A DNA stretch of 64,000 nt, taken from the NCBI RefSeq assembly GCF_022846255.1, contig NZ_AP025682.1. One strand, given 5' to 3'. The notes beneath the pieces were generated by a model, which worked only from the letters and a program-made list of their open reading frames with translations, was not told the origin of the DNA and did no database searches. Source of the DNA: Escherichia coli (GTDB taxonomy: Bacteria > Pseudomonadota > Gammaproteobacteria > Enterobacterales > Enterobacteriaceae). Both the position numbers and the translations under genes were made by a program. Positions 1-24,697 of this stretch are shown here, one piece after another. Position 1 is the first letter of the stretch, and each line of letters starts with the position of its first letter.

Positions 1-519
1 GACGTTGTTCGACGCCGACGTCCAACGCCTCGGCACCCGCACTGAAGACAATCGTCACCATGGCTTCGGCTTGCGCTTCAGTAAACGCACGCGGCATATG
101 GTTTTCGAGTTCCAGATAGTCCGCAAGTTCCGCAATGAAGTGCTGAATTTCACGCGCAACGGCGGCACGAAACGCAGCGGAGGTGCCGGAGCGTTCCCGC
201 AATAATAACCGGAAGGCGTTAGGATTATTACCGATGAACTCCATAAATGTGGAGACCGAGGTGCGGATCACACTCCCGCCTTTGGCGATACGCTGACGCG
301 CCTGGCGCATGAGTTGGCGTAGCATTAAACCGCTCTCATCAACCATGGTCAGACCCAGTTCGTCTACGTCGCGGAAATGCCGATAAAAAGAGGTGGGAGC
401 AATGCCCGCTTCACGCGCCACTTCACGCAAACTCAGGCTGGCGAAGCTGCGTTCAGCACTTAATTGGCTAAATGCGGCTTCCACCAGCGAACGGCGGGTT
501 TTTTCTTTTTGTTGCGCTC
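1..519 (-). CDS. fabR: FabR, TetR-family repressor of unsaturated fatty-acid synthesis; 5' part only, 3' end runs off the window start
   Basis: Reverse-strand translation from ~519 reads [29 protein letters not shown]...[12 protein letters not shown], recognised as E. coli FabR; not in ORF track because truncated; divergent from sthA as in E. coli. Confidence 0.85.
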
Positions 520-863
520 TTACGCCCATCACGATGTCTGAATCCTTGCCAAAAGTACTGCTGGCACTATACCAGAGAATGAACATACTGGATTGCTCCA
601 GTATTGTGAATGAACGGTAACGCAATAAAACATATTTACTGCAATTCTTTGGCCGGTTCTTTTACGTACAACGGAAACCTGCCGCTTAAACGGAGAGTAT
701 CGTCGATAAAAATCCAATAAAACGTTCAGGTCAAAAGTAAGAAACAGACAAAGCAAAGGCCGCTCACGATATAGCCAGATAAATGACGGGGATCAATTGG
801 CTTACCCGCGATAAAATGTTACTATTCTGTTGCTTTTATGTATAAGAACAGGTAAGCCCTACC

Positions 864-2264
864 ATGCCACATTCCTACGATTACGATGCCATAGTAATAG
901 GTTCCGGCCCCGGCGGCGAAGGCGCTGCAATGGGCCTGGTTAAGCAAGGTGCGCGCGTCGCAGTTATCGAGCGTTATCAAAATGTTGGCGGCGGTTGCAC
1001 CCACTGGGGTACCATCCCGTCGAAAGCTCTCCGTCACGCCGTCAGCCGCATTATAGAATTTAATCAAAACCCACTATACAGCGACCATTCCCGACTGCTC
1101 CGCTCTTCTTTTGCCGATATCCTTAACCATGCCGATAACGTGATTAATCAACAAACACGTATGCGTCAGGGATTTTACGAACGTAATCATTGTGAAATAT
1201 TGCAGGGGAACGCCCGCTTTGTTGACGATCACACGCTGGCGCTGGACTGCCCGGACGGCACGGTAGAAACGCTAACTGCAGAAAAATTTGTTATTGCCTG
1301 CGGCTCTCGTCCATATCATCCAACAGATGTTGATTTCACCCATCCACGCATTTACGACAGCGACTCAATTCTTAGCATGCACCACGAACCGCGCCATGTA
1401 CTTATCTATGGTGCTGGAGTTATCGGCTGTGAATATGCGTCGATCTTCCGCGGTATGGATGTAAAAGTGGATCTGATCAACACCCGCGATCGGCTGTTGG
1501 CGTTTCTCGATCAAGAGATGTCAGATTCTCTCTCCTATCACTTCTGGAACAGTGGCGTAGTGATTCGTCACAACGAAGAGTACGAGAAGATCGAAGGCTG
1601 TGACGACGGTGTGATCATGCATCTGAAGTCAGGTAAAAAACTGAAAGCTGACTGTCTGCTCTATGCCAACGGCCGCACCGGTAATACCGATTCGCTGGCG
1701 TTACAGAACATTGGGCTGGAAACTGACAGTCGCGGACAGCTGAAGGTCAACAGCATGTATCAGACCGCACAGCCGCACGTTTACGCGGTGGGCGACGTGA
1801 TTGGTTATCCGAGCCTGGCGTCGGCGGCCTATGACCAGGGGCGCATTGCCGCGCAGGCGCTGGTGAAAGGTGAAGCCACCGCACATCTGATTGAAGATAT
1901 CCCTACCGGTATTTACACCATCCCGGAAATCAGCTCTGTGGGCAAAACCGAACAGCAGCTGACCGCGATGAAAGTGCCGTATGAAGTGGGCCGCGCCCAG
2001 TTCAAACATCTGGCACGCGCACAAATCGTTGGCATGAACGTGGGCACGCTGAAAATTTTGTTCCATCGGGAAACGAAAGAGATTCTGGGCATTCACTGCT
2101 TTGGCGAGCGCGCTGCCGAAATTATTCATATCGGTCAGGCGATTATGGAACAGAAAGGTGGCGGCAACACTATTGAGTACTTCGTCAACACCACCTTTAA
2201 CTACCCGACGATGGCGGAAGCCTATCGGGTAGCTGCGCTAAATGGCTTAAACCGCCTGTTTTAA
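864..2264 (+). CDS. sthA: Soluble pyridine nucleotide transhydrogenase (466 aa)
   Basis: ORF-track protein [24 protein letters not shown]... with FAD/NAD Rossmann motifs; length and synteny next to oxyR match E. coli SthA. Confidence 0.95.
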
Positions 2265-3164
2265 CACTTTATCGAAATGGCCATCCATTCTTGCGCGGAT
2301 GGCCTCTGCCAGCTGCTCATAGCGGCTGCGCAGCGGTGAGCCAGGACGATAAACCAGGCCAATCGTGCGGCGAGGTTCCGGCTTAATACACGGCAAATAA
2401 ACAACCCCATCGCGTTTGCGCTCCGGCGGCACAGCCAGCGCAGGCAGTAAAGTGATCCCGCTACCTGCCGCCACCATGTTACGCAGTGTCTCCAGGCTGG
2501 TCGCGCGGAAGTGTGTATCTTCATCCGCCCCGGCTTCAAAGCAGAAACCCATTGCCTGATCGCGCAAACAGTGACCATCTTCCAGCATCAGCAGTTTTTC
2601 CCCTGCCAGATCGGCCATCGGTACGCATTCGCGGTTCGCCCACGGGTGGTCTTCATAGATAGCCAGCAACATTGGCTCATCAAACAACGGCACTTCAATG
2701 AATGCTTCGCTCTCTTTCACCAGCGCGAGGATCACGCAATCGAGTTTGCCGCTGTCCAGTTGCGCCAGTAACTGGTGGGTCTGTGCTTCATGCAGATACA
2801 TTTCCAGCTTTGGAAAGGTCTGGTGCAGCATCGGGATAATATGCGGTAGCAGGTACGGTCCAACCGTGGGAATCAAACCAATATGCAGCGGCCCGGACAT
2901 CGTCTCGCCCTGCTGGCTTGCCATCTCTTTAAGGACTTTCACCTCACGCAGTACGGTACGCGCCTGATCCACCAGCAGCATTCCCGCCTGGGTGAACAAC
3001 ACTTTACGGCTGGTCCGCTCCAGCAACATCACGCCCAACTCATCTTCCAGCTTACGAATTTGCCCGCTAAGCGTCGGCTGGCTAACGTGGCAGGAATCTG
3101 CCGCACGCCGAAAATGGCGGTGTTCGGCCAATGCCACCAGGTACTCAAGATCACGAATATTCAT
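2247..3164 (-). CDS. oxyR: OxyR, LysR-family hydrogen-peroxide-responsive regulator (305 aa)
   Basis: ORF 2247..3209 trimmed to conserved start [22 protein letters not shown]...; 18-bp convergent overlap with sthA 3' end as in E. coli. Confidence 0.95.
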
Positions 3165-3259
3165 TATCCATCCTCCATTGCCACGATAGTTCGCGGCGAT
3201 AGGTAGCATAGCAACGAACGATTATCCCTATCAAGCATTCTGACTGATAATTGCTCACA
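3165..3259. promoter_or_regulatory. Divergent oxyR/oxyS promoter region with OxyR operator
   Basis: 95-bp spacer between oxyR start codon and oxyS 5' end; established OxyR autoregulation/oxyS activation site in E. coli; individual boxes not mapped here. Confidence 0.6.
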
Positions 3260-3374
3260 GAAACGGAGCGGCACCTCTTTTAACCCTTGAAGTCACTGCC
3301 CGTTTCGAGAGTTTCTCAACTCGAATAACTAAAGCCAACGTGAACTTTTGCGGATCTCCAGGATCCGCTTTTTT
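3260..3374 (+). ncRNA. oxyS: OxyS small regulatory RNA (109 nt plus U tail)
   Basis: Sequence GAAACGGAGCGGCACCTCTTTTAACCCTTGAAGTCACTGCCCGTTTCGAGAGTTTCTCAACTCGAATAACTAAAGCCAACGTGAACTTTTGCGGATCTCCAGGATCCGC followed by T8 (intrinsic terminator) read directly; matches remembered oxyS. Confidence 0.88.
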
Positions 3375-3415
3375 TTATTCTACAGGCCCACAGCAAGAGA
3401 GCCTGATAGTAACGG

Positions 3416-4699
3416 TTACTCAATCCGATCTTTGACAATAAAGAAGTAACACAGCGCCCCGGTGAACGTCACACAGGCCGCGATAACCAGCGCCAGATTA
3501 AACGAGTGTGTGGTATCCACGACCCAACCGGTTACGATCGGAGCAAAGGAAGCAAAAACAAAACTGCCAAAGTTTTGAATCCCGGCGATGGAAGCCACTT
3601 TTGTTTCTGACACCATCACCTGCACCAGCCCCCATGCAGATGTTCCCGCGAAATGCACGCAGAACAGCGCCATTGAGATAAACGCTACCGCCTGGGCTGG
3701 CGAGGAAGATTGCACGACCAGCAACGTGCCTAATGCCGACATCATCAAACCGCAGACAATCGCCGTTTTACGCGTCTTCGCCAGGTCATAGCCTTTTTTC
3801 GCCAGCCGATCGACAACAATACCGTTAACCCACATCCCGACCGCCGCCGCGAGGAAAGGAATTGCCGCCACCCAACCGGTTTTCGCCAGACTGAAACCTT
3901 GTTCGGCCTGCAAATAACCGGGTAACCACGCGATGTAGAGCCAACCGGTATAATTGACGCCAGAGAAACCTAAAATCATCCCCCAGGTTGTCCGATGCTT
4001 AAACAGCGCCAGCCACTCGCTAAATTGTAACTGTGGACGCGGTTTAACCGGCGCGGAGAGATATGTCCGTTCTTCCTCGGTCAGGACAAACTGCGCCCGG
4101 TTGCGATACCACGCGTACCAACAGATCCCAACCAGAATCCCTGCTACGCCGATGATGACAAACATCGTCCGCCAGCCCCATGCCAGTTGCATCAATACAA
4201 GAGCAGGAGGCGCGATAGCCTGACCGATAACGGTAGATGAGTTAAAAATCCCCAGCGCCGTGCCGCGTTCTTTTTGCGCATACCAGTCGGTGATCGACTT
4301 TACTCCCGCAGGCATAAATGGCGCTTCGCCAATACCCAGACCGATACGCATTAAAATAAAGTGGCTAAAAGAATTAACCATTCCTGTTAATGCCTGCATT
4401 AATGACCAGAATATTAAGCCTGCGCCTAACACTATTCGTGGGCCAAAGCGGTCTAGCAAAATACCGGAAGGAAGTTGTGAAAAACCATAAGACAGAGAAA
4501 ATGCAGAAAGCAAAACACCAAATTCGGTAGCGGATAATCCTAACTCACCACGAATTGCTTCACCTGCCACGCTCAATGACGAACGGTCGAGAAAATTAAC
4601 GATCCCCGCCATAAATAATAAAACCAGGGTCACTGTCTGAATACGACGAATCCGTTGCGGTTTATTACCCGCAACACTGGTTGACACATCAACGTCCAT
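3416..4699 (-). CDS. MFS transporter, anion:cation symporter (sugar-acid/hexuronate-type) family, 427 aa
   Basis: 12-TM-like hydrophobic profile, MFS signature region GxLLDRFGPR, resemblance to DgoT/ExuT/YjjL-type transporters; accessory relative to my memory of K-12 (oxyS directly followed by argH). Confidence 0.8.
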   Translation of the reverse strand: MDVDVSTSVAGNKPQRIRRIQTVTLVLLFMAGIVNFLDRSSLSVAGEAIRGELGLSATEFGVLLSAFSLSYGFSQLPSGILLDRFGPRIVLGAGLIFWSLMQALTGMVNSFSHFILMRIGLGIGEAPFMPAGVKSITDWYAQKERGTALGIFNSSTVIGQAIAPPALVLMQLAWGWRTMFVIIGVAGILVGICWYAWYRNRAQFVLTEEERTYLSAPVKPRPQLQFSEWLALFKHRTTWGMILGFSGVNYTGWLYIAWLPGYLQAEQGFSLAKTGWVAAIPFLAAAVGMWVNGIVVDRLAKKGYDLAKTRKTAIVCGLMMSALGTLLVVQSSSPAQAVAFISMALFCVHFAGTSAWGLVQVMVSETKVASIAGIQNFGSFVFASFAPIVTGWVVDTTHSFNLALVIAACVTFTGALCYFFIVKDRIE

Positions 4700-4765
4700 T
4701 TTTAGCTCCTTGAGCGGAATTAATCGATTTGATGAATATTCAGAAAATAATTAAGCGAACCGCTA

Positions 4766-5980
4766 TTACCAGTTCCACAATGTGCCATCTTCCAGTCGTG
4801 CGACGGGGAGATACGCCGGGTCATACGGATATTTCGCCGCCAGTTTCTCATCGAAAGAAATACCCAGCCCCGGTTCATCGCCTGGGTGCATATAACCTTC
4901 ATCGAAGCGCCAGCTGTGCGGGAAGACTTCAAGCATTTGTTCGGAATAGCCCATGTACTCCTGAACGCCAAAGTTTGGCACCCAGAGGTCAAAATGCAGC
5001 GCCGCCGCATGGCAAACAGGCGATAAATCTGAAGGGCCATGCGAACCGGTACGTACCTGATAAAGCGATGCAAAATCGGCAATCCGTCGCATCCCGGTAA
5101 TGCCGCCTGCATGGGTAATCGTCGTGCGAATATAGTCAATCAGCTGCTCTTCGATTAACTGTTTGCAGTCCCAGATACTGTTAAACACTTCACCGACCGC
5201 AATCGGCGTCACGGTATGCTGGCGAATCAGACGAAAACATTCCTGGTTCTCGGCAGGCGTCGGATCTTCCATCCAGAACAGGCGGTAATCCTCAATGCTC
5301 CTCCCAAAGCGCGCCGCTTCGATGGGGGTCAGGCGATGGTGCATGTCATGCAACAGATGTTCGTTAAAACCGAACTTATTACGCACCGCTTCAAATAACT
5401 TCGGCGTAAAATCGAGATACTTTTCTGAAGACCACAACTGCTCTTCTGGCCACAGGCCTTTGGTTGCTGGTTCATACGCCAGTCCTTTGCCCTTCGCCAG
5501 ACCATAGGTGGTTTGCATACCCGGTACACCACACTGCACACGAATCGCCTTAAAGCCCATCTGCTGGTGCTTTGCATAGTCTTCAAGGACTTCATCAATC
5601 GTCCGCCCGGTGGTGTGGCAATAAACCATCACGCCTTCACGAGAAGCGCCACCAAGCAGTTGATACAATGGCATATTTGCCGCTTTAGCTTTGATATCCC
5701 ACAACGCCATATCAATGGCAGAAATGGCCGACATCGTGACGGGACCACGTCGCCAGTAAGCTCCTTTATAAAAGAATTGCCAGATATCTTCGATACGGCT
5801 GGCATCGCGGCCAATTAATTGAGGACAAAGATGATCTTTCAGATAAGAAGCGACCGACAATTCGCGACCATTTAACGTGGCATCTCCTAATCCACAAAGT
5901 CCGCTTTCAGTGGTTATTTTAAGCGTAACGAAATTACGCCCGGGACAAGTAACAAAAACATCCACAGCAATAATTTTCAT
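4766..5980 (-). CDS. Enolase-superfamily D-mannonate dehydratase (ManD)/RspA-like sugar-acid dehydratase (~404 aa)
   Basis: ORF 4766..6040 trimmed to [43 protein letters not shown]...; strongly resembles E. coli RspA/ManD family; exact start uncertain (5980 vs 6040). Confidence 0.85.
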
Positions 5981-6383
5981 TATTGCAATCTCCTGTATTG
6001 TAAATAGACACTTCAAACTTAATTTTACGCCTACTACCATACAAGAGAGAAAAGGTGATTATTCAACCGTGATCACATTAAAAATAAAAATTTCTACCGA
6101 GGAGAAAAAACACCCTCAAAAACCACCTGAATAATTAGCCATTATCGTTAAAACAACACGTTAAATAATCACATAACAAACTCCATTAATCATTAAAAAT
6201 GAACACAGCAATAGAAATGAATTATATTCAATTAATTAAAGTATGTATTGGCTGATGTATTGAAAATATAATTTTTATGGGGAGAGTGAAGGTAAAGAAG
6301 ACGCAAGAATAAAAAGGAATGTGACAAATAATGGTTCTGGTTGGGCGTTAAATTTAAGGTCACCAGAATGCTGACAAATTTCT

Positions 6384-6445
6384 GCCTGATGCGGCGTAAA
6401 CGCCTTATCCGCCTACGAAGTGTCACACTTTGTAGGCGTGGTAAG
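6384..6445. repeat. REP (repetitive extragenic palindrome) element(s) downstream of argH
   Basis: GCCTGATGCGGCGTAAACGCCTTATCCGCCTAC plus a second partial palindrome; typical E. coli REP consensus. Confidence 0.65.
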
Positions 6446-6477
6446 CTCCCCATTTTCAGGGGAGCAATATAAACAAA

Positions 6478-7851
6478 TTACCCCAACCGCGCCTGCGCAA
6501 AAGCAATCGCCTGCGCCACCTGTTGCGGTGAGACACCGCCTTTTGCTGCACGCTTGTCGAGGCACGATTGCAGCGACAGAATCGGATAGACATCTTCGCC
6601 AATCACCTGGCTGAATTTCTGCAACTCACTGAGCGGCAGATCTTCCAACGCTTTGCCCTGACGAATGGCTTCCACCACCGCTTCACCCACAATATGGTGC
6701 GCCTCGCGGAACGGTACGCCTTTCGCCACCAGATAATCCGCCAGTTCAGTAGCGTTGGCGTAACCCTGCTGCGCCGCTTCCTGGCAACGCGGACGTTTCA
6801 CCTGAATGCCGTCCAGCACCAGCGCCGCCATATGCAGGCAGTCCAGCCAGGTATCGAGCGCGTCGAACAGACCTTCTTTGTCTTCCTGCATATCTTTGTT
6901 GTAAGCCAGCGGCAAACCTTTCAGCGTCATCATCATGCCGGTTAACGCCCCCTGCACCCGACCGCATTTACCGCGAATCAGCTCCAGCGCATCCGGGTTT
7001 TTCTTCTGCGGCATTAATGATGAACCGGAAGTCACACGGTCAGAAAGCTCCACAAACCCCGCTTCGCCGGTGTTAAAGAAAATCAGATCTTCAGCAAAAC
7101 GCGACAGATGCACCATGCCGATAGCGGCAGCAGAAAGCAGTTCCAACACATGGTCACGGTCAGAAACGCTGTCGAGACTGTTACGGGTCGCCGAAGCAAA
7201 GCCCAGCCAGCCTGCTAACTGTTCACGGTCGATTTCATAGGCCGTTCCTGCCAGTGCGCCACAACCTAGCGGGCTGACATCCAGACGCTTAAGCGCGTCC
7301 TGCAAACGGCTTTCATCACGCGCCAGCATCTCAACGTAGGCCAGGCACCAGTGAGCGAACGTCACCGGCTGGGCGCGTTGCAGGTGAGTGTAACCCGGCA
7401 TCACCGCGTCCTGATTGTTCTGCGCGGTCTCGACCAGAGCGGATTGTAACTGCCGGTTAGCCGTCAGCAACTCGCTAACGGTATCTTTGCACCACAGTTT
7501 CAGGTCAGTTGCTACCTGATCATTACGGCTACGCCCGGTATGCAGTTTTTTGCCTAACTGACCCACTTTGTCGATCAGTTTGCCTTCCACCCAGCTATGG
7601 ATATCTTCGGCGTCGCTTTCAAGGATTTGTTGTGGCCTGGCGCGAACATCTTCCAGCAGCACGTTCAGCGCCTCTTCCAGTTGCGCCTGCTCTTCTGCGG
7701 TTAACACGCCGACCGTTACCAGGGCTTTGGACCAGGCCACAGAGCCAACAATATCCTGCTCCGCCAGACGGTAATCAAAGCGCAGTGAGTCGTTGAATTG
7801 TTTGAACCGTTGATCTGCTGCCTGGGTAAAACGCCCGCCCCAAAGTGCCAT
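6478..7851 (-). CDS. argH: Argininosuccinate lyase (457 aa)
   Basis: [44 protein letters not shown]...; fumarate-lyase signature [12 protein letters not shown]. Confidence 0.96.
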
Positions 7852-7911
7852 AACTCTGTTTCCTTATTTTGAAATTCAATGCCGGAAAGCTGCGCCTCCG
7901 GCCAACAAAAC

Positions 7912-8688
7912 TTAAGCTAAAATCCGCGTACCCATCGGCATACCGTTAAACAGTGCCGGAAGCTGTTCCGCATGACGCCAGGAGGCGATATCTACCGGAC
8001 GGCCCAACGTGCGCGCAGCATCCAGCGCCGCGTTCACTTTCACAATCATGCCGTCAGTAATAATGCCCTGCTCAATCAGTTGTTCTGCTTTCGCGGCGGT
8101 CATTTCGGCAATACGTTGCCCTTTGCCGTCGAGAATGCCGCTGACGTCAGAGAGCAAAATCAGATCCGCGCCCAGCGTTGCCGCCAGCGCCGTCGCCGCC
8201 TGGTCGGCATTGACGTTCATCAGTTGCCCTTCGTCTGTTACGCCAATGGAGCTGACCACCGGCAGATAACCGTTCTCCAGCAAGCTGTTGATAAGCTTAG
8301 GCGAACCTGGCTGCGCCAGTCCAACATGGCCTAACTCTTCATCAAGCTGGGTCACTTTGACGCTGTCGCCGTCACCGAGAAACAAACCTACGGCCGCAAT
8401 CTGATGTTTCTTCGCCCATGCCAGCAGGGTTTTATTTGCCGTTCCCGCCAGTGCTCCGGTGATAATGTCTATCTGATCCGCAGGCGTCACCCGCAGGCCA
8501 TTTTTCTTTTTCACCGGCAGATTCAGCCCTTTCATCAGCTCATCCACCACGCAACCGCCGCCGTGCACAATCACCAGCGGACGCTGATGTGACTCGCGAT
8601 AATTCACCAGTGCGCTAAACAGACGTTCCAGCGCCTCTTCACTATCCAGCAGTACGCCACCCAGTTTGATAATTAATGGATTCATCAT
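7912..8688 (-). CDS. argB: N-acetylglutamate kinase (258 aa)
   Basis: ORF 7912..8721 trimmed to [24 protein letters not shown]...; argCBH operon order. Confidence 0.93.
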
Positions 8689-8695
8689 TGCACCC

Positions 8696-9700
8696 TTAAA
8701 TAAGAGACTGCGTTTCCGCATAGCCGAAACGAATATTGGCGCACTGCACCGCTTGTGCCGCCGCGCCTTTCAGTAAGTTGTCTTCGGTCGCCACAATAAT
8801 CAGATGCTCGCCCTGAACGGCAAAACCGATATCGCAGAATGGCAGTCCAACGACATTTTTCAGCGCCGGAACGCCTTTGTCATACAGCCGCACCAGTGGT
8901 TTATGGGCATACGCCTGCTGTAACGCTTGCGCCACTTGCACCTGGCTCACACCCGGTTTCAGGCGGCAGGTAATGGTTTCGAGAATGCCGCGCGGGAAAT
9001 TGCCCAGATGCGGGGTGAAGATAACGTCAGCACCGAGGTGTGTGGCGATCTCTGGTTGATGGCGATGGGTAAAGACGCCATACGGTTGCAGGCTAACTTC
9101 ACAAAAACTATTTGAAATCGCTGCCTTACGTCCTGCACCGCTCACGCCGCTGGTGGCGTTGATCACCGGCCACTGATTGAGGTCAAGAAGATCGGCATCA
9201 ATCAACGGTTTCAGCGCCAGCTGTGCTGCCGTCGGATAACAGCCTGGCACGGCAATCAAGTTCGCTTCTTTTAATTTATTACCGCACCACTCCGCCAGAC
9301 CGTAGGCTGCCTGTTCCAGCAGTTCCGGGTATTGATGGGTAAAGCCGTAATATTTTTCATAGAAGGCGACATCGTTAACACGAAACGCGCCGGAAAGGTC
9401 GAACACCACACAGCCTGCTTCAAGAAATTGCGGCGCTAAATCGTGGCTGACTTCATGGGCGGTGGCGAGAAACACCACGTCCACCCCTGGGCTAAACTCG
9501 CTGATATCCGACATCGGCTGCAACGGCAGATCAACGATGCCTTTTAGCTGCGGATGCAAATCGGAGATTAACTTTCCCGCATCATTGCTTTGCGCTGAAA
9601 CAGTCAAAGCGGTTATGTTCATATGCGGATGGCGATTTACATAGGTCACTAGCTCTGCGCCAGCGTAGCCGCTGGCACCCACAATCAGCGTATTCAACAT
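8696..9700 (-). CDS. argC: N-acetyl-gamma-glutamyl-phosphate reductase (334 aa)
   Basis: [35 protein letters not shown]...; first gene of argCBH. Confidence 0.95.
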
Positions 9701-9853
9701 CGGGGCTATTCACCTTCTTATGTCTGGTTGCCAGGTTAAACGTAAAACATTCACCTTACGGCTGGTGGGTTTTATTACGCTCAACGTTAGTGTATTTTTA
9801 TTCATAAATACTGCATGAATATTGATACTATCATGACCAGAGGTGTGTCAACA
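9701..9853. promoter_or_regulatory. argE/argCBH divergent control region with ARG-box-like (ArgR operator) sequences
   Basis: AT-rich spacer containing TTATTCATAAATACTGCATGAATATTGATACT (~9797..9834), resembling tandem ARG boxes (TGAAT/ATTCA cores). Confidence 0.6.
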
Positions 9854-11005
9854 ATGAAAAACAAATTACCGCCATTTATCGAGATTTACCGTGCTCTGAT
9901 TGCCACACCTTCAATAAGCGCCACGGAAGAGGCACTCGATCAAAGCAATGCAGATTTAATCACTCTGCTGGCGGACTGGTTTAAGGATTTAGGCTTCAAT
10001 GTGGAAGTACAGCCTGTGCCAGGAACTCGCAACAAATTTAATATGCTGGCCAGTTGCGGACAGGGGGCTGGCGGTTTGTTGCTGGCGGGGCATACCGATA
10101 CGGTGCCATTTGATGACGGACGCTGGACGCGCGATCCATTTACGTTGACGGAGCATGACGGCAAGCTTTACGGCTTAGGCACCGCCGACATGAAAGGCTT
10201 TTTTGCGTTTATCCTTGATGCGCTACGCGATGTCGACGTCACGAAGCTTGCAAAACCGCTCTACATTCTGGCGACTGCCGATGAAGAAACCAGTATGGCC
10301 GGAGCGCGTTATTTTGCCGAAACTACCGCCCTGCGCCCGGATTGCGCCATCATTGGCGAGCCAACGTCGCTGCAACCGGTACGCGCCCATAAAGGTCATA
10401 TCTCTAACGCCATCCGTATTCAGGGCCAGTCGGGCCACTCCAGCGATCCAGCACGCGGAGTTAACGCTATCGAACTGATGCACGACGCCATCGGGCATAT
10501 TTTGCAATTGCGCGATAACCTGAAAGAACGTTATCACTACGACGCGTTTACCGTGCCATACCCCACACTCAACCTCGGGCATATCCACGGTGGCGACGCT
10601 TCTAACCGTATTTGTGCTTGCTGTGAGTTGCATATGGATATTCGTCCGCTGCCAGGCATGACACTCAATGAACTTAATGGTTTGCTCAACGATGCATTAG
10701 CTCCAGTGAGCGAACGCTGGCCGGGTCGTCTGACGGTCGACGAGCTGCATCCGCCGATCCCTGGCTATGAATGCCCACCGAATCATCAACTGGTTGAAGT
10801 GGTTGAGAAATTGCTCGGAGCAAAGACCGAAGTGGTGAATTACTGTACCGAAGCGCCGTTTATTCAAACGTTATGCCCGACGCTGGTTCTGGGCCCTGGC
10901 TCAATTAATCAGGCTCATCAGCCTGATGAATATCTGGAGACGAGGTTTATCAAGCCCACCCGCGAACTGATCACCCAGGTGATTCACCATTTTTGCTGGC
11001 ATTAA
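9854..11005 (+). CDS. argE: Acetylornithine deacetylase (383 aa)
   Basis: ORF 9815..11005 trimmed to [23 protein letters not shown]...; M20 peptidase motifs. Confidence 0.93.
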
Positions 11006-11020
11006 AACGTAGGCCAAACA

Positions 11021-11058
11021 ATGTCGGATGCGATGCTTACGCATCTTATCCGACCTAC
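11021..11058. repeat. REP element downstream of argE
   Basis: ATGTCGGATGCGATGCTTACGCATCTTATCCGACCTAC palindromic REP. Confidence 0.6.
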
Positions 11059-11306
11059 ACCTTTGGTGTTACTCGAGGCGATTTTTTAACATTCCCATAA
11101 GTTACGCTTATTTAAAGCGTCGTGAATTTAATGGCGTAAATTCCTGCTATTTATTCGTTTGCTGAAGCGATTTCGCAGCATTTGACGTCACCGCTTTTAC
11201 GTGGCTTTATAAAAGACGACGAAAAGCAAAGCCCGAGCATATTCGCGCCAATGCGACGTGAAGGATACAGGGCTATCAAACGATAAGATGGGGTGTCTGG
11301 GGTAAT

Positions 11307-13958
11307 ATGAACGAACAATATTCCGCATTGCGTAGTAATGTCAGTATGCTCGGCAAAGTGCTGGGAGAAACCATCAAGGATGCGTTAGGAGAACACATTC
11401 TTGAACGCGTAGAAACTATCCGTAAGTTGTCGAAATCTTCACGCGCTGGCAATGATGCTAACCGCCAGGAGTTGCTCACCACCTTACAAAATTTGTCGAA
11501 CGACGAGCTGCTGCCCGTTGCGCGTGCGTTTAGTCAGTTCCTGAACCTGGCCAACACCGCCGAGCAATACCACAGCATTTCGCCGAAAGGCGAAGCTGCC
11601 AGCAACCCGGAAGTGATCGCCCGCACCCTGCGTAAACTGAAAAACCAGCCGGAACTGAGCGAAGATACCATCAAAAAAGCAGTGGAATCGCTGTCGCTGG
11701 AACTGGTCCTCACGGCTCACCCAACCGAAATTACCCGTCGTACACTGATCCACAAAATGGTGGAAGTGAACGCCTGCTTAAAACAGCTCGATAACAAAGA
11801 TATCGCTGACTACGAACACAACCAGCTGATGCGCCGCCTGCGCCAGTTGATCGCCCAGTCATGGCATACCGATGAAATCCGTAAGCTGCGTCCAAGCCCG
11901 GTAGATGAAGCCAAATGGGGCTTTGCCGTAGTAGAAAACAGCCTGTGGCAAGGCGTACCGAATTACCTGCGCGAACTGAACGAACAACTGGAAGAGAACC
12001 TCGGCTACAAACTGCCCGTCGAATTTGTTCCGGTACGTTTTACCTCGTGGATGGGCGGTGACCGCGACGGCAACCCGAACGTCACTGCCGATATCACCCG
12101 CCACGTCCTGCTACTCAGCCGCTGGAAAGCCACCGATTTGTTCCTGAAAGATATTCAGGTTCTGGTTTCTGAACTGTCGATGGTTGAAGCCACCCCTGAA
12201 CTGCTGGCGCTGGTTGGCGAAGAGGGTGCCGCAGAACCGTATCGCTATCTGATGAAAAACCTGCGTTCTCGCCTGATGGCGACACAGGCATGGCTGGAAG
12301 CGCGCCTGAAAGGCGAAGAACTGCCAAAACCAGAAGGCCTGCTGACACAAAACGAAGAACTGTGGGAACCGCTCTACGCTTGCTACCAGTCACTTCAGGC
12401 GTGTGGCATGGGTATTATCGCCAACGGCGATCTGCTCGACACCCTGCGCCGCGTGAAATGTTTCGGCGTACCGCTGGTCCGTATTGATATCCGTCAGGAG
12501 AGCACGCGCCATACCGAAGCGCTGGGCGAGCTGACCCGCTACCTCGGTATCGGCGACTACGAGAGCTGGTCAGAAGCCGACAAACAGGCGTTCCTGATCC
12601 GCGAACTGAACTCCAAACGTCCGCTTCTACCGCGCAACTGGCAACCAAGCGCCGAAACGCGCGAAGTGCTCGATACCTGCCAGGTGATTGCCGAAGCGCC
12701 GCAAGGCTCCATTGCCGCCTACGTGATCTCGATGGCGAAAACGCCGTCCGACGTGCTGGCTGTCCACCTGCTGCTGAAAGAAGCGGGTATCGGGTTTGCA
12801 ATGCCGGTTGCTCCGCTCTTTGAAACCCTCGATGACCTGAACAACGCCAACGATGTCATGACCCAGCTGCTCAATATCGACTGGTATCGTGGCCTGATTC
12901 AGGGCAAACAGATGGTGATGATTGGCTATTCCGACTCAGCAAAAGATGCGGGCGTGATGGCGGCTTCCTGGGCGCAATATCAGGCACAGGATGCATTAAT
13001 CAAAACCTGCGAAAAAGCGGGTATTGAGCTGACGTTGTTCCACGGTCGCGGCGGTTCCATTGGTCGCGGCGGCGCACCTGCCCATGCGGCGCTGCTGTCA
13101 CAACCGCCAGGAAGCCTGAAAGGTGGCCTGCGCGTGACCGAACAGGGCGAGATGATCCGCTTTAAATATGGTCTGCCAGAAATCACCGTCAGCAGCCTGT
13201 CGCTGTACACTGGGGCGATTCTGGAAGCCAACCTGCTGCCACCGCCTGAGCCGAAAGAGAGCTGGCGTCGTATTATGGATGAACTGTCTGTTATCTCTTG
13301 CGATGTCTACCGCGGCTACGTACGTGAAAACAAAGATTTTGTGCCTTACTTCCGCTCCGCTACGCCGGAACAAGAATTGGGTAAACTGCCGTTGGGTTCA
13401 CGTCCGGCGAAACGTCGCCCAACCGGCGGCGTCGAGTCACTGCGCGCTATTCCGTGGATTTTCGCCTGGACGCAAAACCGCCTGATGCTCCCCGCCTGGC
13501 TGGGTGCAGGTACGGCGCTGCAAAAAGTGGTCGAAGATGGCAAACAGAGCGAGCTGGAAGCCATGTGCCGCGATTGGCCATTCTTCTCGACGCGTCTCGG
13601 CATGCTGGAGATGGTCTTCGCCAAAGCAGACCTGTGGCTGGCGGAATACTATGACCAACGCCTGGTAGACAAAGCACTGTGGCCGTTAGGTAAAGAGTTA
13701 CGCAATCTGCAAGAAGAAGACATCAAAGTGGTGCTGGCGATTGCCAACGATTCTCACCTGATGGCCGATCTGCCGTGGATTGCAGAGTCTATTCAGCTAC
13801 GGAATATTTACACCGACCCGCTGAACGTATTGCAGGCCGAGTTGCTGCACCGCTCCCGCCAGGCAGAAAAAGAAGGCCAGGAACCGGATCCTCGCGTCGA
13901 GCAGGCGTTAATGGTCACTATTGCCGGGATTGCGGCAGGTATGCGTAATACCGGCTAA
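11307..13958 (+). CDS. ppc: Phosphoenolpyruvate carboxylase (883 aa)
   Basis: [30 protein letters not shown]... ; catalytic motifs [22 protein letters not shown]; ends ...GMRNTG. Confidence 0.97.
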
Positions 13959-20807: not shown

Positions 20808-21887
20808 TTAATTAATTTCAAAATCCAGATCCAGGTCGTCTTCCTTCTCTTCAGTTGAAGACCCATTTTTACGCGCCAGACTTTTCAGCACGTTCACGCA
20901 GACTGCCGTCACAACCGCCCCGACAGCCACTGCCGCGATGTAACCCAACTTACCTTCAACCACCGGCAGCACAATCAGACCACCCCAGCCTGCATAGCAC
21001 TGCGCACCGACCAGCGCCGCAGTTACCGCACCACAAACTGAACCGACCATGATGGAAGGAATGACACGCAGCGGATCGGCAGCGGCGAAAGGAATCGCCC
21101 CTTCAGTAACGCCAACACAGCCCATCACCAGTGCCGCCTTGCCGGTTTCGCGCTCTTCTGCGGAGAAATTTTTACGACCAATCAGCGTCGCCAACCCCAT
21201 CCCCAGCGGCGGGATACAAATACCCACGGCAGCAATGGCCACCACGGTATATACACCCTGAGCAACGCAAATCAGCATGAAGGCATAGGCCACTTTGTTA
21301 ACCGGACCGCCCATATCGAACGCCAGCATCAGCCCCATGATCACCGCCAGCATAACAATGCTGCCCTGCTGCATCCCCTGTAGCCACTGAGTCAGGCTGT
21401 TGGTCAACGCCCCTACAGGCTCGCCCAGCCCCCACATCATGACGCCAGCGGTAATCAGTGTGCCGACGATAGGAATGATGAAGATTGGCATCACCGAGCG
21501 CAGAACTTTATGCACCGGAATTTTCTTCAGGTAATGCACCACGATGCCGCCGATAATCCCGGCGATCAGTGCACCAAAGAAGCCCGCACCAAAGCTGTTA
21601 CCAACCCAGGCACCGATAGCGCATGGAGCCAGCGCAGAACGTTCTGCAATGGAATAACCGATGTAAGCGGCGAGGAAAGGCACCATCAGCGTCAAACCTG
21701 CAACGCCGATATCAAACAGTTTTTTCAGATTCGGATCGGCTACGGCATCCGGCACTGCGCCTTTGCCATACAACATGACGGAAACCGCCAGCAAAATACC
21801 GCCCGATACCACGAAGGGAATCATGTGTGAAACGCCCGTCATTAAATGCTGACGGGTATTTTTCAGGATCTGCACCAACTCATTCAT
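20808..21887 (-). CDS. frwC: PTS fructose-like EIIC permease FrwC (359 aa)
   Basis: ORF 20808..22007 trimmed to MNELVQILKNTRQHLMTGVSHMIPFVV...; polytopic membrane protein. Confidence 0.9.
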   Translation of the reverse strand: MNELVQILKNTRQHLMTGVSHMIPFVVSGGILLAVSVMLYGKGAVPDAVADPNLKKLFDIGVAGLTLMVPFLAAYIGYSIAERSALAPCAIGAWVGNSFGAGFFGALIAGIIGGIVVHYLKKIPVHKVLRSVMPIFIIPIVGTLITAGVMMWGLGEPVGALTNSLTQWLQGMQQGSIVMLAVIMGLMLAFDMGGPVNKVAYAFMLICVAQGVYTVVAIAAVGICIPPLGMGLATLIGRKNFSAEERETGKAALVMGCVGVTEGAIPFAAADPLRVIPSIMVGSVCGAVTAALVGAQCYAGWGGLIVLPVVEGKLGYIAAVAVGAVVTAVCVNVLKSLARKNGSSTEEKEDDLDLDFEIN

Positions 21888-22195
21888 AAGCTGCTCCCGG
21901 GCTTGCGAAAGCCCATGTCCATATTTTTGATGGAAGAAACAATAGGCAATCGCAGGCGGAGCAAACAGTGGATAAAAAGGCCATTTACTGGACTTTTGTA
22001 ATATCAATACAAAAATGCGATCCGCCTCATAACTTGCGATAATCCGGAAGTACGCCGCAAAACGGCGTCTTGTGAGACGCGTCGCAAATTGACGGTTACA
22101 TTACATTTGTCCAGCTTTTGGCAGATTTGTCACATGGCAGGCCGTTGCCGTGCGCTCTTATCCTGTAAACAGAAAACCGTACCGGGAGAAAGGCA

Positions 22196-24697
22196 ATGGC
22201 CCTGATTGTGGAATTTATTTGTGAGCTACCTAACGGCGTACATGCGCGTCCGGCAAGCCACGTTGAAACGCTGTGTAATACTTTTTCATCACAAATTGAG
22301 TGGCATAACCTGCGCACTGACCGCAAGGGCAACGCCAAAAGCGCCCTTGCGCTGATTGGCACCGACACGCTGGCGGGCGATAACTGCCAGTTACTGATTT
22401 CCGGGGCCGACGAACAGGAAGCGCACCAGCGTTTAAGCCAATGGCTGCGCGATGAATTCCCCCACTGCGATGCGCCGCTGGCAGAAGTTAAATCTGACGA
22501 ACTGGAACCACTGCCGGTTTCACTGACCAATCTGAATCCGCAAATTATCCGCGCCCGCACCGTGTGCAGCGGTAGCGCAGGCGGCATTCTGACGCCGATC
22601 TCTTCTTTAGATCTCAATGCGCTGGGTAATCTTCCCGCAGCCAAAGGCGTTGACGCCGAACAATCCGCACTGGAAAACGGTCTGACGCTGGTACTGAAAA
22701 ACATAGAGTTTCGTCTGCTGGATAGCGACGGTGCTACCAGCGCGATTCTGGAAGCGCACCGATCCCTGGCTGGCGATACTTCCCTGCGCGAACATTTACT
22801 GGCAGGTGTCAGCGCCGGATTAAGCTGCGCCGAAGCGATTGTTGCCAGTGCGAATCACTTTTGCGAAGAGTTCGCCCGTTCCAGCAGCAGCTACCTGCAA
22901 GAACGTGCCCTGGACGTACGCGACGTCTGCTTCCAGTTACTCCAGCAAATCTACGGTGAGCAACGCTTCCCGGCACCGGGCAAACTGACGCAGCCCGCCA
23001 TTTGTATGGCTGATGAACTGACCCCCAGCCAGTTCCTCGAACTGGATAAAAATCATCTCAAAGGTCTGTTACTGAAAAGTGGCGGCACCACATCACATAC
23101 GGTGATCCTTGCCCGTTCGTTCAACATTCCGACGCTGGTAGGTGTGGATATTGCTGCCCTTACTCCGTGGCAGCATCAGACGATTTATATCGACGGCAAC
23201 GCAGGGGCGATTGTGGTTGAGCCAGGGGAATCCGTGGCCCGTTATTATCAGCAAGAAGCCCGCGTACAGGACGCTCTGCGTGAGCAACAGCGTGTCTGGC
23301 TGACCCAGCAAGCGCGTACCGCAGACGGTATCCGCATTGAAATTGCCGCTAACATCGCTCACTCCGTGGAAGCGCAGGCCGCATTCGGCAATGGTGCGGA
23401 AGGCGTTGGTTTGTTCCGCACTGAAATGCTCTATATGGATCGCACCAGTGCACCGGGTGAAAGCGAGCTGTACAACATTTTTTGTCAGGCGCTGGAGTCT
23501 GCCAACGGACGCAGCATTATTGTGCGCACTATGGACATTGGCGGTGATAAACCCGTTGATTATCTGAACATTCCGGCAGAAGCTAACCCGTTCCTCGGTT
23601 ATCGCGCGGTGCGTATTTATGAAGAATACGCGTCGTTGTTTACCACACAACTACGGTCGATCCTGCGCGCCTCTGCTCACGGCAGCCTGAAAATCATGAT
23701 CCCGATGATCTCCTCAATGGAAGAGATCTTATGGGTGAAAGAAAAACTGGCGGAAGCCAAACAGCAACTGCGTAACGAACACATTCCGTTTGATGAGAAG
23801 ATCCAGCTCGGCATCATGCTGGAAGTGCCGTCGGTGATGTTCATCATCGATCAATGCTGCGAAGAGATTGATTTCTTTAGTATCGGTAGTAATGACCTGA
23901 CGCAATATCTGCTGGCAGTGGATCGCGATAACGCTAAGGTTACTCGTCACTATAACAGCCTGAATCCAGCATTCTTGCGGGCGCTCGATTACGCCGTGCA
24001 GGCGGTGCATCGCCAGGGCAAATGGATTGGTCTGTGCGGTGAACTGGGAGCGAAAGGTTCCGTGCTGCCGTTGCTGGTCGGTTTAGGGCTGGATGAGCTG
24101 AGCATGAGCGCACCGTCAATTCCGGCGGCGAAAGCGCGAATGGCGCAACTTGATAGCCGTGAGTGCCGCCAGTTGCTCAACCAGGCAATGGCCTGCCGTA
24201 CTTCGCTGGAAGTGGAACACCTGCTGGCACAATTCCGCATGACACAACAAGACGCACCGCTGGTCACCGCCGAGTGCATCACACTGGAAAGCGACTGGCG
24301 CAGCAAAGAAGAAGTGCTCAAAGGCATGACCGATAACCTGCTGCTGGCGGGCCGCTGTCGCTATCCGCGTAAACTGGAAGCCGACTTGTGGGCGCGCGAG
24401 GCCGTTTTCTCTACCGGTCTGGGCTTTAGTTTTGCCATTCCCCACAGCAAATCAGAACACATTGAGCAATCCACCATCAGCGTGGCGCGTTTGCAAGCGC
24501 CGGTGCGCTGGGGCGATGATGAAGCGCAATTCATCATTATGTTAACCCTGAACAAACATGCTGCGGGCGATCAGCACATGCGCATTTTCTCGCGCCTCGC
24601 TCGTCGCATCATGCACGAAGAATTCCGTAACGCGCTGGTTAACGCCGCCTCTGCCGACGCTATCGCCAGCCTGCTGCAACATGAACTGGAACTGTAA
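22196..24697 (+). CDS. ptsA: Multiphosphoryl transfer protein PtsA/FrwA (HPr-EI-EIIA fusion), 833 aa
   Basis: [30 protein letters not shown]... (HPr-like N-terminus), EI-like core with [23 protein letters not shown]-terminal IIA-like domain. Confidence 0.92.

Follow-up and report, generated by a model that had tools for sequence, protein, structure and literature searches.

The rspA-rspB operon of Escherichia coli is one of the closest described relatives of the locus reported here, a two-gene cassette made of a dehydratase gene (manD) and a gene for a transporter of the major facilitator superfamily (MFS), which lies between oxyS and argH in a 64,000-nucleotide stretch of E. coli DNA (assembly GCF_022846255.1, contig NZ_AP025682.1). 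This whole stretch is called the window below; all coordinates are positions in it, and E. coli K-12 MG1655 provides the reference for the site without the cassette. In K-12 the regulator RspR (YdfH) is a repressor of rspA transcription with a 31-bp footprint on the promoter; at the centre of the footprint is the palindrome ATACnnGTAT (ATACTTGTAT in K-12), the RspR box, which by the mapped rspA start site lies over the -35 element (Shimada et al. 2021, PMC8249747). Sites for both RspR and CRP are stated as known at rspAp (bioRxiv 10.1101/2025.05.13.653802). Genomic SELEX (systematic evolution of ligands by exponential enrichment) found a single RspR target in K-12 (PMC8249747), a strain that lacks the cassette, so that this result says nothing either way about it.

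Other described systems resemble parts of the cassette. Its dehydratase has in common with the ManD subgroup (Novosphingobium 2QJJ, Pectobacterium 4E4F, Chromohalobacter 3OW1) the fold family, the metal ligands, the Tyr-Arg base and the His acid, and the predicted product would also be the same, 2-keto-3-deoxy-D-gluconate. The L-gulonate pathway of Chromohalobacter combines a TRAP transporter with a linked GntR regulator (PMC5507952), whereas the cassette has an MFS symporter and no linked regulator. The transporter is like DgoT (6E9N/6E9O) in being an MFS protein of the ACS/SLC17-like type (ACS, anion:cation symporter), in aligning with it over the full length and in keeping its residue pairs D46/R47 and R126/E133; however, identity is about one third, and the partner in the cassette is a mannonate-type, not a galactonate-type, dehydratase.

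The rspA-rspB operon, controlled by RspR and CRP, is likewise partly the same and partly different. RspA is 91% identical (amino acids) to the cassette ManD, and the two promoters are homologous in architecture, with a CRP half-site, the -35 element TTGTAT and GGTAGTAG at equal spacing. The cassette differs in that it lies 2.5 Mb away (K-12 coordinates), has no rspB, carries an ACS transporter, has lost the left half of the RspR palindrome and is present in only about a third of strains. Judged by these homologies, the cassette is a satellite of the rspA/RspR locus with an rspA-type promoter. Our reading, to which we give a probability of roughly 0.6, is that it is an old, strain-variable manD-transporter operon, transplanted from an rspA-type locus, that would serve the uptake and dehydration of a sugar acid under the control of CRP and RspR. 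A piece of rspA-type DNA (a diverged rspA paralogue, an ACS symporter gene and an rspA-type promoter) would then have entered the argH-oxyS junction and replaced the 54-bp spacer together with the argH terminator. Both protein families are already known, both genes are annotated (c4920/c4921 of E. coli CFT073) and the cassette is otherwise an ordinary accessory operon; its link to the RspR regulon is modestly interesting.

Relation to the rspA locus

The core promoter of manD (6016-6048, minus strand, like all promoter elements given here) is recognised by its homology to the rspA promoter. Upstream of manD the sequence CTTGTATGGTAGTAG is identical to that of the K-12 rspA promoter, with a GTGA 31 nt further upstream. 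By the same homology the -35 element is TTGTAT (6044-6039); the predicted -10 element, TAAGTT (6021-6016), is separated from it by a 17-nt spacer and recurs as the same hexamer in Kluyvera. The equivalent of the RspR box, TCTCTTGTAT (6048-6039), has kept only its right half, and a CRP-type site (6059-6080, with the half-site TGTGATCAC at 6077-6069) is centred near -60.5.

Comparison across genera brings out an invariant core of 12 nt, CTTGTATGGTAG (6045-6034), which reaches beyond the published ATACnnGTAT box. More than 12 genera have it unchanged, in front of K-12 rspA and of the orthologues of rspA and of the transporter gene, and also in front of ydfI; in the 64-kb window it occurs once, where 0.03 occurrences are expected. 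Within the module GTGA-N27-CTTGTATGGTAG the 31-nt spacing is kept in 33 of the 40 promoter instances. The module was also seen before ydfI and the transporter gene in Raoultella and Lelliottia (positions 13193, 12193 and 10820 of our loci L003, L018 and L019, respectively).

The transporter points to the same locus. Its orthologues in other genera (82-89% amino acid identity) sit not at argH-oxyS but inside the rspA locus, whose order is ynfA-[MFS]-rspA-rspB-ydfJ-ydfI-...-rspR (ydfH)-ydfG-dcp. This is the case in at least ten other genera, among them Raoultella, Cedecea, Kluyvera, Enterobacter (two species), Pluralibacter, Lelliottia, Siccibacter, Atlantibacter, Citrobacter (sp. 18056) and Klebsiella (a metagenome-assembled genome). 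The place of the transporter gene within the locus varies, and the order of the cassette, rspA followed by the MFS gene, is that of Kluyvera, Lelliottia, Siccibacter and Enterobacter sp. kpr-6. From the rspA locus of E. coli itself this transporter gene is missing.

The two cassette genes are co-directional, dehydratase first and transporter second, with the predicted gap of 66 bp, which we measure at 4700-4765 (minus strand). This spacer contains no RspR/CRP module, and for this reason we read manD and the transporter gene as one operon; in Raoultella, the transporter gene and rspA each have a module of their own.

The dehydratase, the transporter and a possible pathway

The dehydratase (404 aa, 4766-5980, minus strand; c4920 of CFT073, WP_000691039.1) belongs to the ManD subgroup of the enolase superfamily. 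The longest open reading frame (ORF) runs from 4766 to 6040, and the ATG at 6040 falls inside the -35 region of the promoter; the start is the ATG at 5980 (MKIIAVD...), as given by the Prokaryotic Genome Annotation Pipeline (PGAP) in identical alleles, by a Shine-Dalgarno sequence AGGAG (5990-5994, minus strand, 9 nt upstream of this ATG) and by the N-termini of crystallised RspA and ManD proteins. The protein had been described as ManD/RspA-like, and this is borne out: over residues 1-404 it scores 731.6 bits with the NCBIfam ManD equivalog model NF043051 (cutoff 550), which places it within that family, and it aligns without gaps, at about 91-93% identity, with RspA of E. coli CFT073 (4IL2, E=7e-270) and with Pectobacterium ManD (4E4F). 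No metal-binding or catalytic residue has been lost, since R147 (AIRVQ), Y159 (TTYG), D212 (LLHDMHH), H214, E238 (WMEDP), E264 (VGEVF) and H314 are all kept, and R147, Y159 and H214 are the same in 4IL2 and 4E4F. Rakus and colleagues, in 2007, are said to have identified Asp210, Glu236 and Glu262 as the metal ligands of ManD (numbering of the Novosphingobium enzyme), a Tyr159-Arg147 dyad as the base and His212 as the acid; the offset of +2 in D212, E238 and E264 is consistent with the 404:402 alignment to 2QJJ.

The comparison with K-12 rspA that had been proposed as a check for paralogy makes the cassette ManD a paralogue of RspA, at 91.4% amino acid and 80% nucleotide identity. In a neighbour-joining tree the cassette ManDs form a long-branch clade of their own, outside all RspA orthologues, that of E. 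coli included. The cassette manD is, on the evidence of this tree, an old paralogue or a xenologue of rspA and not a recent duplicate; a recent duplication of E. coli rspA is rejected in view of the separate long branch and of a nucleotide identity of only about 80%.

The transporter (427 aa, 3416-4699, minus strand, ORF and PGAP; c4921 of CFT073, WP_000382186.1) was predicted to be of the MFS type, and full-length homology now makes it a DgoT-like anion:cation symporter. Its best homologue of solved structure is the D-galactonate:H+ symporter DgoT of E. coli (6E9N, E=1.9e-57; residues 13-424 against 24-440 of the chain), and D38, R39, R118 and E125 are aligned with D46, R47, R126 and E133 of DgoT, which, according to what Leano and colleagues reportedly found in 2019, are the residues of proton coupling and carboxylate binding. 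K-12 ydfJ had been considered as a homologue of the transporter and was rejected: both products have 427 aa, but they are only 22% identical and belong to different MFS families.

From these likenesses a pathway can be proposed. The transporter would take up a hexonate-type sugar acid by proton symport, and ManD would convert D-mannonate, possibly D-gluconate as well, into 2-keto-3-deoxy-D-gluconate, probably as inefficiently as RspA does; this product would then pass to the core enzymes KdgK and Eda. RspB and YdfI, encoded elsewhere on the chromosome, could provide mannonate from L-gulonate-type substrates. In Chromohalobacter, Wichelecki and colleagues (cited in PMC5507952) reportedly described in 2014 a route from L-gulonate through fructuronate and mannonate to 2-keto-3-deoxy-D-gluconate, and the enzyme types of the rspA locus (the Zn-dependent dehydrogenase RspB, the mannitol-dehydrogenase-family reductase YdfI and ManD) would match its steps.

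Control and substrate

Transcription of the operon would start about 30 nt upstream of the ATG at 5980, with the -35 element overlapping the RspR operator region and the CRP site near -60; cAMP-CRP would activate it, and RspR (YdfH) would probably repress it in trans from the distant rspA locus. We regard RspR and CRP as candidate regulators because the manD promoter shares with rspA a module that overlaps the footprinted RspR operator. The original prediction held that no regulator gene lies within the cassette, and indeed there is none among its ORFs; it supposed instead an unlinked regulator, and promoter homology now suggests that this is probably RspR together with CRP, although the left half of the palindrome is degenerate. 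The rspR gene is present in 5,416 of the 5,426 complete RefSeq E. coli genomes that make up our population sample, and its locus lies outside the window.

Several findings weigh against the reading that we prefer, and they should be given together. The box in the window departs from ATACnnGTAT, its left half being TCTC in place of ATAC (three of four bases changed), and RspR may for this reason bind weakly or no longer at all; the CRP site, too, has a poor right half. On the side of function, UxuA already serves mannonate in E. coli, and E. coli RspA was reportedly found by Wichelecki and colleagues (in 2014) to be a low-efficiency ManD with no established physiological role. With the D-galactonate transporter subfamily model TIGR00893 the transporter scores 276.6 bits, below the cutoff of 395; it is therefore an ACS relative rather than a DgoT orthologue, and its substrate is not fixed by this homology. 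A search of a literature library for c4920 and c4921 found no paper on them and no expression or phenotype data. Lastly, in Citrobacter sp. R56, where the cassette occupies the same site, the transporter is intact (92% amino acid identity) and manD, still preceded by the conserved promoter, has shrunk to 63 aa, its N- and C-termini being fused in frame (positions 6693-6884 of our locus L024), a layout repeated in two further contigs from sequencing runs; from a decayed manD beside an intact transporter gene it follows that the two genes are not strictly interdependent.

The changed left half-site lends some weight to a different view of the control, which we find doubtful yet worth keeping in mind: that the cassette has escaped from RspR, so that CRP alone sets its expression, or so that the AT-rich upstream DNA keeps the operon largely silent via H-NS. 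All Escherichia alleles of the cassette have TCTC as the left half, Citrobacter sp. R56 has AATC, and the GC content of the upstream 260 bp is about 0.29. Escape sits badly, however, with the invariance of CTTGTATGGTAG across genera and in three different promoters; in other genera an imperfect left half (nTTC) also occurs in the promoters of the transporter gene and of ydfI. What is conserved for recognition may thus be the 12-nt core rather than the published palindrome.

Another view concerns the substrate. D-gluconate, L-idonate, L-galactonate or another acid sugar might be used in place of mannonate or L-gulonate, or ManD might play a "starvation-sensing" role like the one claimed for RspA, in which case "D-mannonate dehydratase" would be a misleading label. 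Among the members of the ManD subgroup there are gluconate-specific, promiscuous and inactive enzymes; the cassette ManD stands in a long-branch clade apart from the RspA orthologues, the transporter falls below the D-galactonate subfamily cutoff, and one source labels an orthologue of it as an L-galactonate transporter. We nevertheless judge this unlikely, given an identity of 91-93% to RspA and Pectobacterium ManD, active-site residues and a 150-180 loop that are nearly unchanged, and a score that passes the ManD equivalog model.

We know of no physiological role ever given to rspA or to the rspAB-ydfJI genes. In strains with the cassette, the uropathogen CFT073 among them, the regulon would probably be larger by one transporter and by a dehydratase that joins RspA, purifying selection on the two genes is strong, and strains with and without c4920-c4921 form a defined pair for finding the substrate. 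Outside K-12, the RspR regulon appears from the promoters compared here to comprise three or more promoters, and a "single-target" transcription factor of K-12 may well have more targets in other strains.

Age, borders and neighbourhood of the insertion

Between argH and oxyS there are 54 bp in K-12 MG1655 and 3,101 bp in the window. Homology with K-12 breaks off exactly at 3376/3377, after the T-run of oxyS, and returns at the argH stop codon (6478), so that the stretch without a K-12 counterpart is 3377-6477 (3,101 bp), including a REP-like (repetitive extragenic palindromic) element and a hairpin at 6383-6465. The original prediction had given the insertion as 3377-6383: its left end stands, and its right end moves 94 bp further, to 6477, the REP-like element and hairpin being new as well. 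It was right that both genes are missing from K-12, where argH and oxyS are separated by the 54 bp only.

Salmonella enterica, S. bongori and Citrobacter freundii have no cassette at the site either; the homology of their spacer to that of K-12 is clear and takes in the argH terminator hairpin (GAGCCTGGC...GCCGGGCTTTTTT). It follows that the site was empty in the ancestor and that the cassette came in as an insertion, taking the place of the spacer. A deletion of the cassette in K-12 was favoured at first, on account of its presence at the same site in other Escherichia and in a Citrobacter, but is ruled out by these homologous empty spacers. Of the accessory insertion that had been proposed, the polarity is thus confirmed; the insertion is no recent or strain-specific acquisition, since the same site is occupied in other Escherichia species.

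A genome scan found the cassette at this site in E. whittamii, Escherichia sp. E1V33 and Escherichia sp. MOD1-EC7003, collinear with the window up to 10 kb. Nucleotide identity to the window is 97.5-97.8% for the cassette and about 97% for the flanks in E. coli cq9, 93-96% and about 94% in Escherichia sp. E1V33, about 93% for both in E. whittamii, and 78% and about 84% in Citrobacter sp. R56. Synonymous divergence (dS) from the other Escherichia species is 0.29-0.32 for the transporter gene and 0.27-0.31 for argH. The ratio of nonsynonymous to synonymous divergence (dN/dS) is 0.010-0.025 for the transporter gene, 0.034-0.038 for manD and 0.025-0.049 for argH, with similar values for oxyR; both cassette genes are under strong purifying selection. 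The cassette is, by these comparisons, an old, vertically inherited presence/absence polymorphism, older than E. coli itself.

Among the ORFs and features of the window there is no integrase, insertion sequence (IS) or tRNA at the cassette, a repeat scan found no flanking direct or inverted repeats beyond chance, and its coding GC is 0.48-0.56; recent horizontal transfer or a mobile element is rejected in view of the lack of repeats, integrase and IS and of a dS equal to that of the flanks. That the cassette is a recently acquired mobile islet, or that K-12 lost it by deletion, has accordingly become most improbable: a presence in only 34% of genomes, and an AT-rich edge and REP element at one border, could suggest an islet, but the lack of an integrase, IS, tRNA, flanking repeats or plasmid copy, a coding GC near 0.5, flanks with the same dS as the cassette in the comparisons with E. 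whittamii and Escherichia sp. E1V33, and an ancestral K-12 spacer common with Salmonella and C. freundii all contradict it.

In the population sample the cassette, called where at least 80% of it was found, is present in 1,860 of the 5,426 genomes (34%), on the chromosome every time and never on a plasmid, and the intact junction of the K-12 type in 3,554. Genomes with the cassette are annotated "MFS transporter | manD: D-mannonate dehydratase ManD". They include CFT073 (phylogroup B2), with the proteins WP_000691039.1 and WP_000382186.1; because argH is c4919 and oxyR c4922 in the original CFT073 annotation, manD and the transporter gene are c4920 and c4921. E. coli cq9, whose flanks are about 99% identical to K-12, also has the cassette.

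The left border is formed by the small RNA gene oxyS (3260-3369, plus strand, with a T-run to 3376), which matches Rfam RF00035 with 139.5 bits (threshold 75) and for which a terminator scan gives a hairpin at 3350-3368 followed by the T-run to 3376. From the stop codon of the transporter gene to this T-run there are 38 bp (3378-3415), close to the 40 bp predicted. Within the 3' flank of the transporter gene (38-39 bp, 3377-3415, minus strand), the scan found no minus-strand intrinsic terminator between the stop codon and oxyS. In the RNA fold of the flank a weak stem precedes the only strong minus-strand hairpin, which is the oxyS hairpin in reverse complement and is followed by AAAAGUU, with no U-tract. 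By this arrangement, transcription of the cassette could continue antisense into oxyS, in the same direction as that of oxyR; Rho-dependent termination after the transporter gene is possible as well. What lies 3' of oxyS is thus, in a third of strains, different from the textbook layout of K-12, and the neighbouring gene there has no terminator of its own.

One may go further and suppose that in cassette strains RspR controls a second, remote operon, which would supply the symporter missing from rspAB-ydfJI and complete a cryptic pathway of the L-gulonate/mannonate type, and that antisense read-through of the induced operon, through oxyS and into oxyR, would couple the availability of the sugar acid to the OxyS/OxyR oxidative-stress circuit; transcription through oxyS into oxyR, if true, would follow from the operon having no terminator of its own. 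We offer this combination as a speculation and consider it unlikely.

At the other border, argH (6478-7851, minus strand; ORF and K-12 homology) has its own terminator in the 54-bp spacer in K-12, and in cassette strains the new hairpin and the REP-like element instead. These lie directly 3' of argH, in the part 6383-6477 (minus strand): the REP-like palindromic element (GCCTGATGCGGCGTAAACGCCTTATCCGCCTAC...) at 6383-6444 and the hairpin GCTCCCC-N7-GGGGAGC at 6445-6465; the repeat scan recovers an inverted repeat in this part. Between Escherichia species no part of the insert is conserved less than the stretch 6383-6465 (70-79% identity). Upstream of manD, the AT-rich non-coding stretch 6121-6382 (GC about 0.29-0.35) is less conserved than the genes, with 94% identity to E. 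coli cq9 and 86-90% to other Escherichia species.

The gene order in the window is fabR (minus strand, running off the window start), sthA (864-2264, plus strand), oxyR (2247-3164, minus strand), oxyS, the transporter gene, manD, argH and, past it, argB and argC (minus strand) and argE (plus strand), the positions of sthA and oxyR and the strands of the arg genes past argH being those of the ORF list. The window is a mosaic: 2801-10400, which spans the 5' part of oxyR, oxyS, the cassette, argHBC and part of argE, is near-identical to CFT073 (0-2 mismatches per 400 nt), and 1-2800 differs from CFT073, cq9 and K-12 (4-18 per 400 nt). For positions 1-7000 no complete RefSeq genome matches above 98.9%. 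The mosaic is in keeping with transfer of the cassette allele from one lineage to another, through homologous recombination within the core genes on either side.

Two further variations were seen nearby. Between sthA and fabR, CFT073 (positions 20897-23422 of our locus L037), FHI_NMBU_03 and three other Escherichia species have an accessory pair of genes, for an M20 aminoacylase and a citrate-proton symporter, which is missing from the window (site at about 590-860) and from K-12. The argH-oxyS site itself takes a third form in 147 of the 5,426 genomes, against about 1,713 with the cassette alone: an extra sugar cluster of about 9.4 kb stands between the manD upstream region and argH (junction at about 6185 of the window; for example E. 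coli CFSAN061763, positions 3639-13242 of our locus L039). This cluster encodes an FGGY kinase, an L-ribulose-5-P 3-epimerase, a four-gene ABC transporter, a DeoR regulator and an araD-like 4-epimerase.

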